Shown here piece by piece: positions 9,315 through 15,665 of a stretch of 45,917 nucleotides of DNA (positions are counted from its first letter, which is position 1; each line of letters begins with the position of its first letter). Under the pieces are notes generated by a model that saw only the letters and a program-made list of their open reading frames with translations, searched no databases and was not told the DNA's origin. Made by a program: the position numbers and the translations under genes. This DNA comes from a phage, in the NCBI GenBank assembly GCA_014750165.1, contig GCA_014750165.1_4319.1; one strand, written 5' to 3'.

Positions 9315-12300
9315 ATGGCACAAATGATCAAAACAAACATGGGGCTTTTTGATATGGCTGAAGAGATTAAGATTTATGGTGCTAAGGGTGGTAGCCAGAA
9401 GCAGCACCAACCAGTGGAGCAAGAAGATAACCTAATTTCACTTAACAAGGTTAAGGTACTGCTTGCGGTTGCTGATGGTGAGGTTGACCCTAATTTCTCA
9501 ATGAAGGATTTATACCTTGCTGACGTTCCGGTGCAAAACCAGGATGGTAGCTACAACTATGAAGGTGTTCGTGCTGAGTTCCGCGCTGGCACGCAGTATC
9601 AGGATTATATCGCTGGCCTTGATGGTGCTAACTCAGAGATTCAGGCTTCCAGAGAAATTACGAACGATACCCCGTACATCATTGCGGTTAACAACACTCA
9701 GCTATCAGCAATTCGAGTTAAGCTATTTTGGCCTCGACTTGTCAAGCAGGAAAGTAACGGTGACCTGAACGGTACAACATGCGAGTATGCAATTGACCTA
9801 TCTGTTAATGGTGGTGCTTACCAGGAATACACTCGCGGAGTTGCTAACGGGAAGACAACTACAGGTTACGACCGCAGCATTCGTATAAACCTTCCGGCTG
9901 AATTTGATAGCGCTTTGGTTCGTATCCGCAAGATTACAGCAGATTCAACAAGTAGCACACTGGTAAACGGGATGCAGATTACAACCTATCAGGAAGTAAT
10001 TGACGCTAAATTCCGCTATCCGCTTACCGCCCTGGTTTATGTTGAGTTTGGTTCTGACTTGTTCCCTAACGGAATCCCGACAATCTCAATCAAGAAGCGC
10101 TGGAAGTTAATTCAGGTTCCTACAAACTACGACCCGGAGACAAGAACTTACAGCGGGACATGGAATGGCCTTTTCAAAATGGCGTGGTCAAATAACCCGG
10201 CATGGGTTTTATATGACTTAGTAACAAACCGACGTTACGGACTTGACCAAAGAGAATTGGGTGTAGAGATTGATAAGTGGGGTCTTTACGAAGCTGCGCA
10301 ATTTTGTGACCAGATGGTTCCTGATGGTAAGGGTGGAATGGAGCCGCGCTACCTGTGCGATATGGTTGTGCAGAACAAGGTTGAGGCTTACACGCTAATT
10401 CGTGATATCTGCTCAATCTTCCGTGGCCTGACTTTCTATGACGGCGAAAAGATTGGTATCGTGGTTGATAAGCCTCGCAATCCATCTTACATTTTCACAA
10501 ATGATAACGTTGTAAACGGATTATTCAGCCGCACCTTTGCCAGTGACAAGAGTCTTTACACTACCGCAAACGTCCAGTTTGATGATGTAGAGAACAACTA
10601 TCAACAAGATGTAGAGCCGGTATTTGAATTAGAGGCAACTCGTCGTTTTGGATTTAACCCTGTAGATTTAACTGCGATTGGCTGTACTCGCAGAAGTGAA
10701 GCAAACAGACGTGGCAGATGGCTCCTAAAAACCAACCTGAGAAGCGAAACTATCAGCTTCACTACCGGGTTGGAGGGTATGATTCCGATGATTGGCGAGG
10801 TGATTGCGGTTAATGACGCGGCATGGTCTAGCAACTATCAGTTAAACCTTTCAGGTCGTATTGAATCAGTTCAGGGATTGCAGGCTTTTACCCCGTTCAA
10901 AGTTGACGCAGCGCCGGGTGACAGAATTCTTCTGAACAAGCCAGACGGCAGCCCAGAGGCAAGAACTATTGCCAGCGTTTCGGAGGATGGTAGAACAATC
11001 AACCTTAACACTGCTTTCAGCTTTGTAGCTCAGCCTGATACTGTATTCGCAATCGATAAGGATAATCTGGCGCTTCAGCAGTATGTTGTGACCGGGATTC
11101 AAAAAGCAGATACTGACGGCTCAGATTCATTCCAGTATACGATTACCGCGGTGGAGTATGACCCTAACAAGTATGACGAGATTGACTACGGCGTTAACAT
11201 CGTTGATCGTCCGACTTCAATCGTAGAGCCTGACAGATTGTCGCCGCCTGAGAATTTAACAGTGTCAAGCTACAGTAAGGTTGTTCAGGGCTTGTCAGTC
11301 GAGACGATGGTAATTGGCTGGGACAAGGCTCCATACGCTAAAACATACAATATTCAGTGGAGGAAAGAAAATGGTAACTGGATTAACGTACCCAGAACAG
11401 CAAGTACAGAAGTTGATATTGAGGGCATTTACGCAGGAATCTATGACGTTAGGGTTCGCAGCGTATCAGATACTGAAAACGTGTCTGCCTGGTCTAGCGT
11501 TGTAACGGTATCGCTAACTGGCAAGATTGGTCGACCTTCGGCGCCTACGGTTATCACGGCTTCAACTGATGAGGTATTTGGCATCCGTGTTAAGTGGGGT
11601 TTCCCTGAGGGTTCTGGTGACACTGCTTACACCGAACTTCAGCAGGTTCCAGATAATGGTGATGGTACTTACAATGCTGATAACGCGAGCTTACTTACGC
11701 TGCTTCCGTATCCGGCGTATGAATACTGGCACACGCCAATTCAGCCAGGCAAGGTGATTTGGTATCGCGCAAGATTGATTGACAGAATCGGTAACACATC
11801 TGATTGGTCTAATTTCGCAAGAGGCATGAGTACTGACGATGCCAACATTATCAATGATTACATCAAGGTTGATATTGAAGGTTCTGAAGGATTCAAATAT
11901 CTCGAGCAGAATGCGATTCAAAAGAATCAGGACATTCAGAATCAGGCAGAATCAATTCTCGAGAACGCATTAGCTAATGATACTGATGTTCGCCGCATGA
12001 CAAGGGAGAACGGCAAACGCAAGGCTGAATATGTTCAGGCAGTGAATCTAATAGCTGATGAAACTCAGGCGCGAGTAGAGGCTCTCACAGCTCTTAAGGC
12101 GCAGATAGATGATGAAGTTGTAGCATCGATTACAGAAGTTCAGACAGCTCTAGCAACTGAGACGGAAGCAAGAACTACTGCAGACACGGCTCTATCAGCA
12201 AGATTGGGTGATAACGAGGCGGCCATAAACCAGAAGTTAGACGCATTCTCCAATGCGACATCTACTGGCGTGCAATACGGAATCAGTTTAGGTCTTAAAT

Positions 12301-12740
12301 ATAACGGCCAGACTTATTCATCCGGCATGAGCATGGAGCTAGTTGGCACTGGTGGAAACGTTCGCAGTCAGTTCATTTTTGACGCAAACAGATTCGCAAT
12401 CAGTAACGGCATTGGTTCTGGTTCCGGTCAGTGGCAGCTCCCCTTCGTTGTAGAGAACGGAAACGTAATCATCCAGAGCGCAGTAATTGGTGATGGCTCA
12501 ATCAGTAACGCGAAGATTGGTAACTTTATTCAGTCTAATAACTACGTACCAGGAACTACAGGTTGGAGGATTGATAAGTCAGGAAGTGCAGAACTAAGTA
12601 ACGCAACTGTAAGGGGGAATCTGTACGCAAATAACGGTAACTTCGCATTCAATGGAACAAACAATACTGTTCAGATTAACAACAATGGAATTACAGTAAA
12701 CTTACCGAATGGAGGCAGGGTTGTAGTTGGAGTGTGGTAA
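9315..12740 (+). CDS. host-specificity / central tail fibre protein (lambda gpJ-like)
   Basis: 1141 aa, occupies the gpJ position, and carries an FN3-like segment (PPENLTVSS...W). Confidence 0.9.
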   Translation: MAQMIKTNMGLFDMAEEIKIYGAKGGSQKQHQPVEQEDNLISLNKVKVLLAVADGEVDPNFSMKDLYLADVPVQNQDGSYNYEGVRAEFRAGTQYQDYIAGLDGANSEIQASREITNDTPYIIAVNNTQLSAIRVKLFWPRLVKQESNGDLNGTTCEYAIDLSVNGGAYQEYTRGVANGKTTTGYDRSIRINLPAEFDSALVRIRKITADSTSSTLVNGMQITTYQEVIDAKFRYPLTALVYVEFGSDLFPNGIPTISIKKRWKLIQVPTNYDPETRTYSGTWNGLFKMAWSNNPAWVLYDLVTNRRYGLDQRELGVEIDKWGLYEAAQFCDQMVPDGKGGMEPRYLCDMVVQNKVEAYTLIRDICSIFRGLTFYDGEKIGIVVDKPRNPSYIFTNDNVVNGLFSRTFASDKSLYTTANVQFDDVENNYQQDVEPVFELEATRRFGFNPVDLTAIGCTRRSEANRRGRWLLKTNLRSETISFTTGLEGMIPMIGEVIAVNDAAWSSNYQLNLSGRIESVQGLQAFTPFKVDAAPGDRILLNKPDGSPEARTIASVSEDGRTINLNTAFSFVAQPDTVFAIDKDNLALQQYVVTGIQKADTDGSDSFQYTITAVEYDPNKYDEIDYGVNIVDRPTSIVEPDRLSPPENLTVSSYSKVVQGLSVETMVIGWDKAPYAKTYNIQWRKENGNWINVPRTASTEVDIEGIYAGIYDVRVRSVSDTENVSAWSSVVTVSLTGKIGRPSAPTVITASTDEVFGIRVKWGFPEGSGDTAYTELQQVPDNGDGTYNADNASLLTLLPYPAYEYWHTPIQPGKVIWYRARLIDRIGNTSDWSNFARGMSTDDANIINDYIKVDIEGSEGFKYLEQNAIQKNQDIQNQAESILENALANDTDVRRMTRENGKRKAEYVQAVNLIADETQARVEALTALKAQIDDEVVASITEVQTALATETEARTTADTALSARLGDNEAAINQKLDAFSNATSTGVQYGISLGLKYNGQTYSSGMSMELVGTGGNVRSQFIFDANRFAISNGIGSGSGQWQLPFVVENGNVIIQSAVIGDGSISNAKIGNFIQSNNYVPGTTGWRIDKSGSAELSNATVRGNLYANNGNFAFNGTNNTVQINNNGITVNLPNGGRVVVGVW

Positions 12741-12746
12741 ATGACT

Positions 12747-12772
12747 AGGCCCCTGAAGGGGCCTTTTCTTTT
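12747..12772 (+). terminator. intrinsic terminator at a convergent junction
   Basis: AGGCCCC-TGAA-GGGGCCT followed by TTTTCTTTT. Confidence 0.65.
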
Positions 12773-13733
12773 AGTAGAAGTTTGGAATAAATGGAAGTGC
12801 CATTGATATATTTGTGTCAAAAGGAAACTGAGCGCCTGTCTGAGTTGAGTAGTTACCTATTACAGATCCAGGAACAGCCCTAACGGAGCCACCAGACATA
12901 CAAACTCCCTTGTATCGTAAGTTGTTATACCCTCCGGTAACTCTAGTCGTAGCGCCGCACCTAAGTAGCGGGAAGAAACCACCATTTATTGACTGATATC
13001 CATTGCTTATTTGTATAAATCCACCAAGAACGAATGGTCGTCTAACGCTTGAAAAAACAATCTGACCAGAACTATTTGACATTGTGAGCCCTGGTCCTGC
13101 TGGTGGCGGTTCATTCCTGAATATCACTAACTGAACGTAAGTGCTTGCCGCCACGTCATCTATGCCACCATAGTTTACATCACGGCACCATATTGTACTA
13201 CCATCACTCTCCAGCGACACATTTGGGTTATCCCACTTACCAAATGGTATTCCGCTAACCGGTAGCGATGCTGCCCCGTTAACCTGTATTCCTCCAACCC
13301 ATGCTGCTGACATTAGTCTCGAGTTGCTTGATATGGCAAGGAAATCAGTTGAGTTCTCAACGAGTATGCCTGGACTTGATGAAGATGAAGCCGGTAGTAT
13401 CTCAAAGCAATTACCAGCAAAGTCAATTATTCTACCATTAGCACCATTGAAGTTGCTGAGCGTTATCCTGCCAGTTCCGTCATTTACCTTTTGAAACCCG
13501 TTCATGTAATAAACTTCGGGTATAACATCGTAAGCGTCAACGTGGACTGCCTTCGTTGGTAGGCAGAAAGCCGTAGAACCAGGTGACATTGTCAATCCAA
13601 AATCCCACGATATTGCTGGTGTTGAAAGTCCATTGGTATTTATTGATCCAGTCACAGCAGGTGCCCTTAATCCTGCCGTGATTTCCATCGCTGGTCTTCC
13701 GTCATTGAGGTCAATCAATATACCCTGCGGCAT
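12771..13733 (-). CDS. hypothetical Gly/Ser/Asn-rich protein, translationally coupled to the cor-like gene
   Basis: ATG 13733 overlaps the upstream stop (TAATG), and the AAGGAG RBS lies inside the cor-like 3' end. 320 aa with no motif I can name. Confidence 0.6.
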   Translation of the reverse strand: MPQGILIDLNDGRPAMEITAGLRAPAVTGSINTNGLSTPAISWDFGLTMSPGSTAFCLPTKAVHVDAYDVIPEVYYMNGFQKVNDGTGRITLSNFNGANGRIIDFAGNCFEILPASSSSSPGILVENSTDFLAISSNSRLMSAAWVGGIQVNGAASLPVSGIPFGKWDNPNVSLESDGSTIWCRDVNYGGIDDVAASTYVQLVIFRNEPPPAGPGLTMSNSSGQIVFSSVRRPFVLGGFIQISNGYQSINGGFFPLLRCGATTRVTGGYNNLRYKGVCMSGGSVRAVPGSVIGNYSTQTGAQFPFDTNISMALPFIPNFY

Positions 13734-13978
13734 TATTTCCACTCCTTACTGCCGTGATCTGCAACAGAACCGCCGTAACCTCCGCCAGCTTTACTTTCAA
13801 TGCCAGCGTATCGAATATCAACCTCACCAGCAGGAACAACTACACCGCCTTTCCACTTAGCTACGCACACGCCGTTTGCTTGCGTTGCACACCAACCGTC
13901 CGGTCGAGGACCAGAAGAACAACCAACTGCCATGATTACTGCCGCTGCGATGATTGCTGATTTGATTAAGTTAGTCAT
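13733..13978 (-). CDS. cor: Cor-like superinfection-exclusion lipoprotein (putative)
   Basis: 81 aa with a signal peptide and lipobox (IMAVG-C). Size and its location next to the J gene match cor of T1/phi80/N15-type phages. Confidence 0.55.
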
Positions 13979-13997
13979 TTTGTATTCCTTATTAAGT

Positions 13998-14064
13998 GCG
14001 TTTCGTTTCGATGGAGTAATAGTATCGCATCCTTGCGATCAGTGTTTAGCAATTAGTGCTATTC
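13998..14064 (-). promoter_or_regulatory. box/-10/leader cassette
   Basis: Minus strand reads AATAGCACTAATTGCTAAAC, 22 nt (ATCGCA..TGCGAT hairpin), TACTAT, then CCATCGAAACGAAACGC. Confidence 0.6.
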
Positions 14065-14696
14065 GCCAAAAATACAGCTCTTGCAAATCCACGAGGTGTA
14101 AGACTGCGAATTACCTTTGTTTTCTTGCTCTTCCCGCCTAGCTTCTTGTGCTGGTCTGAGTATCCATCATTAACGTCAACTGGTGAGGCATGAGGCCATT
14201 TAAACCCATTGCCAGACCAAATGCACGTCTTCTTAGGATATGCGTCTCTTGGCTTTATTAGGTCGCTAAAAAACGGGTGTAAATCATCTTCCGGCAAATA
14301 GCCTCCGTATTCGTAAGGGTGAAACGTGTTATCAGGTTTACGCCAGAGCGATGACAGCACGCTGACTGGGTTCTCAATCATGTATGGAACTCCGTATTTT
14401 TCAGCCAGTTTAAAAGCAACCTTGCAAGTCTCTGCCGCCTCAATTTGGAAGTTTTGGTTGGCTAGGCGCTTACGCTCAAAGTGTGCTGCCCCGCTCACGG
14501 CTAAATCCGTACAGGGCGGGAATGCCATGATAAAATCAGGCTTCACATCAAAATCAAAACTGGAATCTATCCAGGCGTTAACGTATGTAATGTTCTCATG
14601 TTCAACTCTTGCGTTTAAGTAGCTATAGCTCCCGTGGTCAGACTCATCAAAGTTGAAGCAGTAGCAAGTGTGACCAGCTTCAGCCCAATCCTTCAC
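14046..14696 (-). CDS. DNA (cytosine-5) methyltransferase, short form
   Basis: AFPPCTDLAVSG matches motif IV (PC) and MIENPVS matches motif VI (ENV). The SAM motif I (SLFDGSG) lies in frame upstream of the GTG at 14696, so the real start is probably near 14735. The protein ends in box-encoded NSTNC. Confidence 0.7.
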   Translation of the reverse strand: MKDWAEAGHTCYCFNFDESDHGSYSYLNARVEHENITYVNAWIDSSFDFDVKPDFIMAFPPCTDLAVSGAAHFERKRLANQNFQIEAAETCKVAFKLAEKYGVPYMIENPVSVLSSLWRKPDNTFHPYEYGGYLPEDDLHPFFSDLIKPRDAYPKKTCIWSGNGFKWPHASPVDVNDGYSDQHKKLGGKSKKTKVIRSLTPRGFARAVFLANSTNC

Positions 14697-14744: not shown

Positions 14745-14810
14745 CTCGTTAGTTTAAGTGCGGCGATTATACCGCACAGAATTTATTGTTCTTTAGCAAT
14801 TCGTGCTATT
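14745..14810 (-). promoter_or_regulatory. box/-10/leader cassette
   Basis: Minus strand reads AATAGCACGAATTGCTAAAG, 22 nt (GTGCGG..CCGCAC hairpin), then TATAAT (14771..14766). Confidence 0.6.
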
Positions 14811-15519: not shown

Positions 15520-15568
15520 CCTAAATATACCCAAAGATACCCAGTTGTCTTTAGCAAATCGTGCTATT
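15520..15568 (-). promoter_or_regulatory. box/-10 cassette
   Basis: Minus strand reads AATAGCACGATTTGCTAAAG, 22 nt, then TATATT (15529..15524). Confidence 0.55.
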
Positions 15569-15665
15569 TATAGCCAATTTCACCATAAATCACGGTTACA
15601 CGTAACCGATGTAACTCGATGTATACAATCTCATCCGCGGAAAATGATATACGCGCTGTTACGCC

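Follow-up and report, generated by a model that had tools for sequence, protein, structure and literature searches.

A predicted LptD-specific receptor-binding protein and its coupled Rtp45-type exclusion lipoprotein beside the J-like gene of an Rtp/OzMSK-like coliphage

The loci for receptor-binding proteins (RBPs) of small siphoviruses are located downstream of gpJ and encode the RBP together with a cognate exclusion protein (Maffei 2021; Dunbar 2025). Exclusion or accessory proteins encoded next to the RBP, in loci that follow gpJ, are also described in a 2026 preprint, and allelic variants of the locus track receptor specificity (Maffei 2021; 2026 preprint). Among the closest described systems are two examples of the LptD-targeting 'bona fide RBP locus' of small siphoviruses: Rtp44/Rtp45 in phage Rtp, and in phage Oekolampad the pair of an RBP and an exclusion lipoprotein (bas18_0026). 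The Oekolampad RBP binds the extracellular face of LptDE through an interface of approximately 1,700 Å2, and formation of this complex in vitro is slow and partial, reaching 15-35% after 48 h (Dunbar 2025). The cryo-EM structure of Rtp45-LptDE(M) showed that Rtp45 binds on the periplasmic side and that loop EL4 is displaced by up to 20 Å; the structural roles of the Cys30-Cys38 disulfide and of a beta-hairpin in the LptD lumen were described in the same study, which also found the AlphaFold3 models of Rtp45 and of the Rtp45-LptDE complex to be wrong (Dunbar 2025). Phage OzMSK is unable to infect two mutants with loop deletions in lptD (Black 2025), and in a screen of 255 phages the whole RBP family (>30% identity) was associated with LptD (2026 preprint). 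A like logic is seen in T5, where the monomeric tail-tip RBP pb5 (oad) acts on a barrel that the periplasmic lipoprotein Llp blocks from inside; however, the T5 receptor is FhuA, and Llp works by long-range allostery, whereas Rtp45 displaces EL4 sterically. Cor of T1, phi80 and N15 is also a small outer-membrane lipoprotein encoded near J, and it shuts out phages that depend on the same receptor as its producer, but it belongs to the phrog_1119 family and targets FhuA.

In the present study, we analyzed a phage DNA of 45,917 nucleotides (the whole stretch, referred to as the window), in which two minus-strand genes face a J-like gene. It is very probable that these genes constitute the known module of an RBP and its cognate superinfection-exclusion protein (Maffei 2021; Black 2025; Dunbar 2025) in a Drexlerviridae coliphage of the Rtp/OzMSK kind. 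The module itself brings no new biology; only the boundaries at the cassette described below and the use of LptD by Kuravirus-type podoviruses could lead further. An initial annotation, made from the letters of the window, regarded a large protein coupled to a lipoprotein as outside the textbook picture, but loci of this composition downstream of gpJ had been published (Maffei 2021; Dunbar 2025). All of the features that it named were found where it had placed them, and they are given here with those added by our analysis:

9315..12740, plus strand: J-like tail-tip gene (1141-aa product)
12222..12740, plus strand: 'Phage_Tail_Tip' C-terminal domain of the J-like tail-tip protein (PF09327, 3.8e-37, residues 970-1109 of 1141)
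12747..12764, no strand assigned: GC-rich hairpin in the gap that separates J from the convergent RBP gene (terminator-like match AGGCCCCTGAAGGGGCCT, then a plus-strand T-tract)
12771..13733, minus strand: DUF6453 gene for the predicted RBP (320 aa)
12810..13695, minus strand: variable core of the RBP gene, from comparison with phage BEK2
13731..13747, minus strand: translational coupling junction (AAGGAG ribosome-binding site, 13747..13742, and TAATG, 13735..13731)
13733..13978, minus strand: lipoprotein open reading frame (81-aa precursor, Cys20 predicted to be lipidated)
13998..14064, minus strand: promoter-like cassette upstream of the two coupled genes (palindrome, -10-like hexamer and box)

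The 81-aa lipoprotein gene and the 320-aa gene, with the cassette upstream of the pair, are convergent on the plus-strand J-like gene, as was originally noticed. The stop codons of the RBP gene (ending at 12771) and of the J-like gene (9315..12740) are 30 nt apart, and the hairpin lies in this gap. It is likely the shared terminator of the two genes; the equivalent site in CEB_EC3a carries a terminator annotation, and the T-tract is poor on the minus strand. Since the lipoprotein and the 320-aa protein belong to strong database families, their genes are not chance open reading frames, and the antisense plus-strand reading frames within 13300..14141 were treated as by-products of these family-supported genes. 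The lipoprotein gene has its own ribosome-binding site, AAGGA (13990..13986), 7 nt ahead of the ATG at 13978. The coupling junction, reported in the initial annotation, is read directly from the sequence: AAGGAG lies inside the final lipoprotein codons (S-K-E-W-K), and the TAA stop (13735..13733) shares 1 nt with the RBP ATG (13733..13731). The TAATG junction is also present in five of the seven related phages compared (OzMSK, CEB_EC3a, Rtp, TheodorHerzl and BEK2), and a 2-nt gap takes its place in Haito_Bas83 and pSf-2. A GTG start at 13742, which extends the product to 323 aa in the list of open reading frames, was rejected because homologues begin at the overlapping ATG, as do the annotated genes of OzMSK, Rtp and TheodorHerzl. 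The coupling is common but not obligatory, since in the genomes of Webervirus and Kuravirus the RBP gene and the lipoprotein gene lie apart.

The described systems share this layout. In both Rtp and Oekolampad, a PF20051 protein and a PF24052 protein are encoded convergently on a J-like gene, and in Rtp the lipoprotein gene likewise comes first and overlaps the RBP gene by 1 nt. The nearest relatives are OzMSK_038 and OzMSK_039 of vB_EcoS_OzMSK (Black 2025), a phage of the same group with an identical locus layout; both proteins are 96.3% identical to those of the window. OzMSK differs upstream of the cassette, where it carries a PF01555 methylase gene instead of the Dcm-like methyltransferase gene of the window.

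The 320-aa protein, which had been taken as unrecognisable, is a full-length member of the DUF6453 family (PF20051 in Pfam, 3.1e-139, 463.7 bits against a threshold of 25 bits, 291 of 291 profile positions) and matches phrog_1265 in PHROGs (1.1e-129). OzMSK_038 is annotated as a putative LptD RBP. The homology to the Oekolampad RBP also covers the full length (PDB 9RPT chain C, from the cryo-EM structure with LptDE, E = 6e-68, 44.6% identity; further structures are 9RPW and 9RQI), and the identity to Rtp44 is 39%. The composition (12.2% Gly, 10.6% Ser, 7.5% Asn) and the predicted structure, all-beta save one 5-residue helix in an AlphaFold2 model with a pLDDT of 86.6, bear out the earlier description. 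Two checks proposed with that description were carried out. In the Foldseek search of this model against the PDB, 9rpt_C (E = 7.6e-22, target-normalised TM 0.92, rmsd 2.1 Å) was the sole match with E <= 0.001, and the next of the 50 matches listed had E = 0.12. As a comparison of fold only, no pb5 chain was among these 50 matches and no sign of relatedness to pb5 emerged, and a pb5-like or other known fold was rejected since only 9rpt_C was matched. Hydropathy analysis found neither a signal peptide nor a transmembrane segment, and on this ground we rejected the membrane or secreted location suggested by the label of the family in PHROGs ('membrane protein / moron'). From the homology and the modeled fold, the protein is predicted to be an LptD-binding RBP of the tail tip. 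Among the roles initially suggested for it, that of a virion protein thus appears essentially correct, and this evidence from sequence and model comes close to a structural virion component of known fold, the outcome named at that time as speaking against the proposal.

On this prediction, the terminal receptor of the phage of the window would be LptD, the essential LPS translocon. One possible alternative is that the two genes are an RBP and exclusion pair, but that the RBP recognises some outer-membrane protein instead of LptD, or depends on a co-receptor. The alleles are divergent, the window RBP belonging to a different clade from both Rtp44 and the Oekolampad RBP, and the RBP core is exchanged by recombination. 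Since the identities to these two proteins are just 39-45%, the details of contact may differ, even with the shared predicted fold. Furthermore, phage Bas01 requires NupG, via a GpJ domain, as well as LptD (2026 preprint), and thus a second receptor is possible for the phage of the window. However, its RBP is nearly the same as that of OzMSK, which is blocked by two lptD mutants, the family at >30% identity is LptD-associated in the 255-phage screen, and the linked lipoprotein is approximately 77% identical to the LptD-binding Rtp45. We therefore regard a receptor other than LptD, or a necessary co-receptor, as very improbable.

The PF09327 domain at the C-terminus of the J-like protein is presumed to be the docking platform for the RBP, and we infer that the RBP attaches to the virion there. 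The DUF6453 gene adjoins a PF09327-bearing gene in the window, in an Enterobacter prophage and in podovirus Bas88, and lies beside an annotated J-like or tail-fibre gene in other Drexlerviridae, Dhillonvirus, Nonagvirus, Webervirus and Salmonella phage loci. In 10 related loci the gene likewise neighbours J, with convergent orientation in the coliphage loci and co-directional orientation in three, and in every siphovirus or prophage context examined the DUF6453 gene immediately adjoins the J-like gene. No structure was found in which a DUF6453 protein is attached to the J tip; in the cryo-EM structure of T1 the distal C-terminus of J is unresolved.

The leading idea of the initial annotation was that the 320-aa protein is not a virion protein but a second exclusion or receptor-modifying factor, acting with the lipoprotein in the infected cell. 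Its gene is indeed co-transcribed and translationally coupled with that of an exclusion lipoprotein, on the strand opposite the late tail operon; copies of the cassette that precedes the pair are also found ahead of non-structural genes, and the PHROGs label would suit such a function. However, a protein with neither a signal peptide nor a transmembrane segment could not reach the envelope from within the cell, and the homologue of known structure contacts LptD on its extracellular face. In addition, the DUF6453 gene follows the J or tail-fibre gene directly and co-directionally, with no lipoprotein gene beside it, in Enterobacter prophages (where it thereby falls within the tail-gene cluster), Webervirus and Salmonella phage S137, and the alleles of the locus track receptor specificity. 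A second factor of this kind is hardly credible, and we retain the RBP reading.

As first recognised, the 81-aa protein has the lipobox AVGC. Lys6 forms the n-region, the hydrophobic core reaches a Kyte-Doolittle 19-residue maximum of 1.94, and the lipobox M-A-V-G-C20 (context IMAVG-C20-SS) has Ser at +2, the sequence after the cysteine being SSG. In the Lol pathway, the absence of Asp at +2 implies sorting to the outer membrane; thus, with Ser at this position, the protein has no inner-membrane retention signal. It matches PF24052, the Rtp45 family, over positions 1-80 of 80 (Pfam, 1.1e-38, 131.5 bits against a threshold of 27 bits), and its PHROG is phrog_4281. The identity to Rtp45 is 76.5% by tblastn, and 77.5% over an 80-column phmmer alignment with PDB 9RPS chain D (E = 9.6e-36). 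Cys30, Cys38 and the hairpin segment align near-identically with those of Rtp45, and the structural features of Rtp45 are kept, except that there is a 5-residue insertion near the C-terminus. With the same high confidence as for the module as a whole, these similarities point to an Rtp45-type superinfection-exclusion lipoprotein. The earlier term 'Cor-like' is apt for the class, which blocks the phage's own outer-membrane receptor, but not for the sequence family, and the context points to LptD, not FhuA, as the receptor concerned. That the protein is a genuine FhuA-inactivating Cor protein as in T1, phi80 and N15 is close to untenable: against the similar size, the lipoprotein nature, the position near the J gene, one public record labeling a homologue 'Cor superinfection exclusion protein' and weak sub-threshold cross-matches between the two families, there is no phrog_1119 match at E <= 0.1 (compared with 3.3e-30 for T1 Cor), the BLASTP alignment to T1 Cor spans only residues 1-45 (mostly signal peptide, with some twelve residues beyond it, 20.8 bits), the closest characterised relative is Rtp45, solved with LptDE, and the T1 locus differs, with a solitary cor and with gp32 and gp31 in the J-adjacent RBP-locus position on the J strand. 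Membership of the Cor family was rejected on the PHROG search and BLASTP.

We propose that the module works as follows. The RBP, without a signal peptide, would be made in the cytoplasm and become part of the virion at the far end of the J-like fibre, a trimer, to which it would probably attach via its conserved N-terminal base. Its loop-rich end would insert into the lumen of LptD-LptE, the outer-membrane LPS translocon, leading to irreversible adsorption. The lipoprotein would leave the cytoplasm, receive its lipid at Cys20 and reach the outer membrane, in whose inner leaflet it would be anchored. There it would bind the periplasmic side of LptD and push its beta-hairpin up the barrel. With extracellular loop 4 displaced by the hairpin, neither an incoming phage nor released progeny could bind through its RBP. 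Since the two genes share one cassette and the TAATG overlap, cells making the RBP may also make its antidote, and the two genes may travel together in module exchange between phages. For annotation, 'membrane protein / moron' and 'hypothetical protein' could be replaced with a predicted LptD-specific RBP and a predicted Rtp45-type superinfection-exclusion lipoprotein, which would be of use in host-range prediction and in engineering phage-resistant production strains.

Gordonclarkvirinae (Kuravirus-type) podoviruses carry a PF09327 domain, a DUF6453 protein and a PF24052 lipoprotein. In Bas88, a 336-aa protein annotated as a tail fiber has a C-terminal PF09327 domain, and its position suggests that it is the tail-needle protein; its gene is followed directly by the DUF6453 gene and then by a transglycosylase gene. 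The PF24052 lipoprotein of these genomes is encoded away from the DUF6453 gene. By gene order alone, the Bas88 DUF6453 protein would correspond to gp19 of SU10, which the paper on the SU10 virion never mentions, and our literature search found no report of LptD use by Kuravirus-type podoviruses. A tentative explanation, slightly more apt to fail than to hold, is that the docking domain, the DUF6453 RBP and the PF24052 lipoprotein form a portable LptD kit independent of morphotype. If this is true, Kuravirus-type phages have in LptD a terminal receptor that has gone unrecognised, and Rtp45-type lipoproteins would cross-exclude siphoviruses and podoviruses alike.

Comparison with phage BEK2 revealed the extent of allele variation. 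Nucleotide similarity is approximately 88-91% up to position 12809 of the window and resumes at 13696, and the BEK2 RBP is 39.6% identical to the window RBP at the protein level. Only the first approximately 38 nt and the last approximately 39 nt of the RBP gene are conserved between the alleles, and the best-conserved parts of DUF6453 are the N-terminal MPxGILIDLNDGRPxMEITAGLRAP and the C-terminal LPxIPNMY. These sequence comparisons indicate that the RBP core is swapped by recombination.

The cassette at 13998..14064 reaches into the methyltransferase gene at its 3' end and consists of a TAGCA-N5-TGCTA palindrome (core match 14061..14045), TACTAT (14024..14019) and CATCGAAACGAAAC (14013..14000). 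Its core, TAGCACTAATTGCTAAA, occurs in 17 copies in the window at <=3 mismatches, against 0.16 expected by chance. In most copies, a TATAGT-like hexamer at a fixed distance and a CATCGAAACGA box come next, with a ribosome-binding site and an ATG after them; a few copies diverge. A literature search on the cassette sequence found nothing, and a simple sigma-70 scan upstream of the lipoprotein gene gave no promoter; the scan misses the cassette because the distance between TTGCTA and the -10-like hexamer is 22 nt instead of 16-18 nt. The cassette is real, and the promoter activity by which, according to the earlier statement, it drives the lipoprotein gene is putative. Exact copies are present in T1, OzMSK and BEK2. 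The similarity to OzMSK ends exactly at the cassette (position 14063), where the methylase gene of OzMSK and the methyltransferase gene of the window differ. As a separate observation, cassette copies lie at or near two boundaries of module exchange.

The arrangement described in the initial annotation, in which a cassette precedes a lipoprotein gene that is coupled to a 320-codon open reading frame (ORF) convergent on the tail-tip gene J, was confirmed by reading the sequence and consists of the following elements.

9315..12740, plus strand: J-like tail-tip gene (1141 aa), on which the pair converges
12747..12764: GC-rich hairpin inside the 30-nt gap between J and the 320-aa gene
13733..12771, minus strand: 320-aa ORF, whose start ATG overlaps the lipoprotein stop
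13747..13742 and 13735..13731, minus strand: coupling junction, with AAGGAG inside the last lipoprotein codons and the TAA stop and ATG overlapping as TAATG
13978..13733, minus strand: lipoprotein ORF (81 aa), with an AAGGA ribosome-binding site, then 7 nt to the start

This pair is a module of an LptD-specific receptor-binding protein (RBP) and an Rtp45-type exclusion lipoprotein, and is real, already known and explained. The phage is a Drexlerviridae coliphage (Braunvirinae, Rtp/Guelphvirus-like), and 80-84% of the first 25 kb of the window is approximately 88% identical in nucleotide sequence to CEB_EC3a, BEK2/3, JeanPiccard, SU57 and OzMSK. Several near-identical T1-like coliphage genomes are labelled "Campylobacter phage" (A110b, A131, A123) or "Pseudomonas phage PsgS01F" in public records; these are probably contaminating coliphages or wrongly labelled hosts.

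The 320-aa protein (Gly 12.2%, Ser 10.6%, Asn 7.5%; all-beta in the structure model) had been regarded as unrecognizable, with no motif that could be placed. However, it matches Pfam DUF6453 (PF20051) over its full length (3.1e-139), belongs to phrog_1265, and has homologues in 411 phage records (tblastn). A PDB sequence search yielded one match, covering the whole length, to chain C of 9RPT/9RPW/9RQI (E = 6e-68; 44.6% identity to 9RPT chain C, counted from the alignment). These entries are cryo-EM structures of Shigella LptDE, the outer-membrane LPS translocon, with the RBP of phage Oekolampad (Dunbar et al. 2025, PNAS, PMC12685063), and this homologous RBP binds the extracellular face of open-state LptDE. 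The fold search that had been proposed gave the same answer: with an AlphaFold2 model built from a 39-sequence alignment (mean pLDDT 86.6, pTM 0.87), the sole significant Foldseek match in the PDB was 9rpt_C (E = 7.6e-22, target-normalised TM 0.92, rmsd 2.1 A), and the next-best match had E = 0.12. The closest annotated relative is OzMSK_038 (96.3% identity), deposited as [quoted passage not shown], and the E. coli lptD mutants delta(Y658-Y678)::H and delta(L394-V396)::Y are both refractory to OzMSK (Black et al. 2025, PMC13035648). Because the two RBPs are 96% identical, it is very likely that the present phage also uses LptD as its receptor. A check for secretion features, also proposed in the initial annotation, detected neither a signal peptide nor a transmembrane segment in the 320-aa protein by hydropathy (Kyte-Doolittle 19-residue maximum 1.11), and thus the PHROG label "membrane protein / moron" for this family is misleading.

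The 81-aa protein is indeed a lipoprotein, with a classical lipoprotein signal peptide, Cys20 and Ser at +2, but its description as Cor-like did not hold at the sequence level. It matches PF24052 "Phage_lipoprotein" (1.1e-38) and phrog_4281, and membership of the Cor family was rejected since phrog_1119 was not matched, whereas T1 Cor matches it at 3.3e-30. Pairwise similarity to T1 Cor goes no further than the signal peptide and the first few residues that follow it, and the layout of the T1 Cor locus is unlike that of the lipoprotein-RBP locus. The lipoprotein shares 76.5% identity with Rtp45 of phage Rtp (tblastn) and matches chain D of PDB 9RPS with E = 9.6e-36; that entry is the cryo-EM structure in which Rtp45 is bound to LptDE(M) (Dunbar et al. 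2025, PMC12685063). In that structure, Rtp45 is located between LptE and LptM, near strands 5-8 on LptD's periplasmic side, and carries a Cys30-Cys38 disulfide; its hairpin extends up the LptD lumen and moves extracellular loop 4 (EL4) by up to 20 A, so that RBP binding is sterically blocked. Both cysteines and the hairpin segment are kept in the alignment with the present lipoprotein.

A large coupled partner had been considered a departure from the textbook picture, but the pairing was already published. Maffei et al. (2021, PMC8594841) described "bona fide RBP loci" immediately 3' of gpJ in Drexlerviridae, Dhillonvirus, Nonagvirus and Seuratvirus, comprising a dedicated RBP, believed to be non-covalently fixed on the J-like protein, plus a cognate superinfection-exclusion protein, and tied one allele to LptD. 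A 2026 preprint, which cites the LptDE structures, confirmed this picture on 255 phages. The present analysis establishes the gene structure, the families, the fold identity with the Oekolampad RBP, the Rtp45 features, the synteny and the coupling. The TAATG overlap is common to OzMSK, CEB_EC3a, Rtp (rtp45/rtp44), TheodorHerzl and BEK2; in Haito_Bas83 and pSf-2 the genes are separated by a 2-nt gap, and in all seven the ribosome-binding site lies within conserved (K/R)-E-W codons. The DUF6453 gene has no adjoining lipoprotein gene in Klebsiella phage Domnhall, Salmonella phage S137 and Enterobacter lambdoid prophages, where it comes after the gene for J or the tail fibre on the same strand, and no lipoprotein is annotated upstream of it in FritzHoffmann. 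The linkage is conserved but not obligatory. The cassette at 13998..14064 would be the promoter of the pair, and coupling may serve to co-express and co-inherit weapon and antidote. The RBP would be carried, through its conserved N-terminus, on the C-terminal PF09327 domain of J; none of the structures found shows it on the J tip, and that of T1 does not resolve the distal part of J.

The two genes differ in conservation. The lipoprotein is 85% identical to that of BEK2 and approximately 77% to that of Rtp, versus 39.6% and 39% for the RBP; thus, one lipoprotein type is paired with at least two RBP clades. The high conservation fits a protein that binds LptD on its conserved periplasmic face, and the shared lipoprotein suggests broad cross-exclusion among LptD-dependent phages. 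Nucleotide similarity to BEK2 breaks over 12810..13695 and is retained in J, at both ends of the RBP gene (its last ~39 nt and its first ~38 nt), in the lipoprotein gene and upstream; the RBP core, between conserved ends, is therefore the exchangeable unit. Similarity to CEB_EC3a and OzMSK ends at 14063, within the cassette. It restarts in CEB_EC3a exactly at the next copy, 14792, so that both edges are at cassette copies, and in OzMSK at 15597, ~30 nt from the copy at 15550..15566. The gene affected is as follows.

14046..14696: Dcm-like methyltransferase gene (phrog_757), between cassette copies 14045..14061 and 14792..14808

In its place, CEB_EC3a has a DNA-binding protein and OzMSK a PF01555 methylase. 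The cassettes may serve as recombination linkers in the swapping of gene modules.

The same parts occur in Gordonclarkvirinae (Kuravirus-type) podoviruses (~68-78 kb), which encode a PF09327 protein, a DUF6453 protein and a PF24052 lipoprotein. In Bas88 StefiGeyer (locus L010, 2890-4930), Bas88_0014 (336 aa, annotated as tail fiber) has coiled-coil-like matches and the PF09327 tip domain, which suggests a tail-needle protein. It is directly followed by the DUF6453 gene Bas88_0015 (PF20051 7.2e-25; PDB 9RPT_C 1.6e-12) and a transglycosylase gene; by gene order, the three would correspond to gp18, gp19 and gp20 of SU10. The SU10 structure paper nowhere mentions gp19. The Rtp45-like lipoprotein gene lies ~45 kb away, and its product retains the RPDGWCA...CV...VP.GE.D.RY core; Bas94 ManiMatter (locus L011, 2426-2704) was the second genome inspected for these parts. 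Both genes are present in at least five Kuravirus-type genomes (tblastn). These homologies predict that LptD is a terminal receptor of these podoviruses; a search of the available literature found no paper linking Kuravirus to LptD. In lambdoid prophages of the Enterobacter cloacae complex (L014-L016, 2502-6966), the DUF6453 gene lies among the tail genes and starts 1 nt after J, which shares the domain architecture of the window J (FNIII-A_GpJ, Phage-tail_3, Phage_Tail_Tip) and is preceded by the Phage_min_tail, Phage_tail_L, JAB/NlpC and Lambda_tail_I families. The prophage protein belongs to a cluster of 1,656 member sequences, and the use of LptD may extend to temperate phages of Enterobacter, Citrobacter and Salmonella.

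The cassette itself was also borne out: 17 copies of its core, TAGCACTAATTGCTAAA, were counted in the window when up to three mismatches were allowed, versus 0.16 expected.

17-mer match starts: 2342, 14045, 14792, 15550, 17414, 21263, 25291, 25582, 26649, 29571, 33023, 33638, 34750, 36200, 36833, 37968, 41141

The conserved order is AATAGCACGAATTGCTAAA, 22 nt, a TATAGT-like hexamer, CATCGAAACGA, a ribosome-binding site and ATG; the downstream elements are at fixed spacing from the core in most copies and missing from a few. The centre of a palindrome, TAGCA-N5-TGCTA, falls ~42 nt upstream of where the -10-like hexamer would set the start site, and a sigma-70 scan fails to detect the cassette, which resembles an activator/operator site combined with a -10 element more than it does a standard -35/-10 promoter. 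A text search of the literature found no paper on the cassette sequence; exact copies are also present in T1, OzMSK and BEK2. The copy at 2342 lies in a part of the window whose counterpart in related phages is the tail-gene region, and the ORF downstream of it, from 2428 on the plus strand, begins with the signal-peptide-like MKAIITIMAVA.
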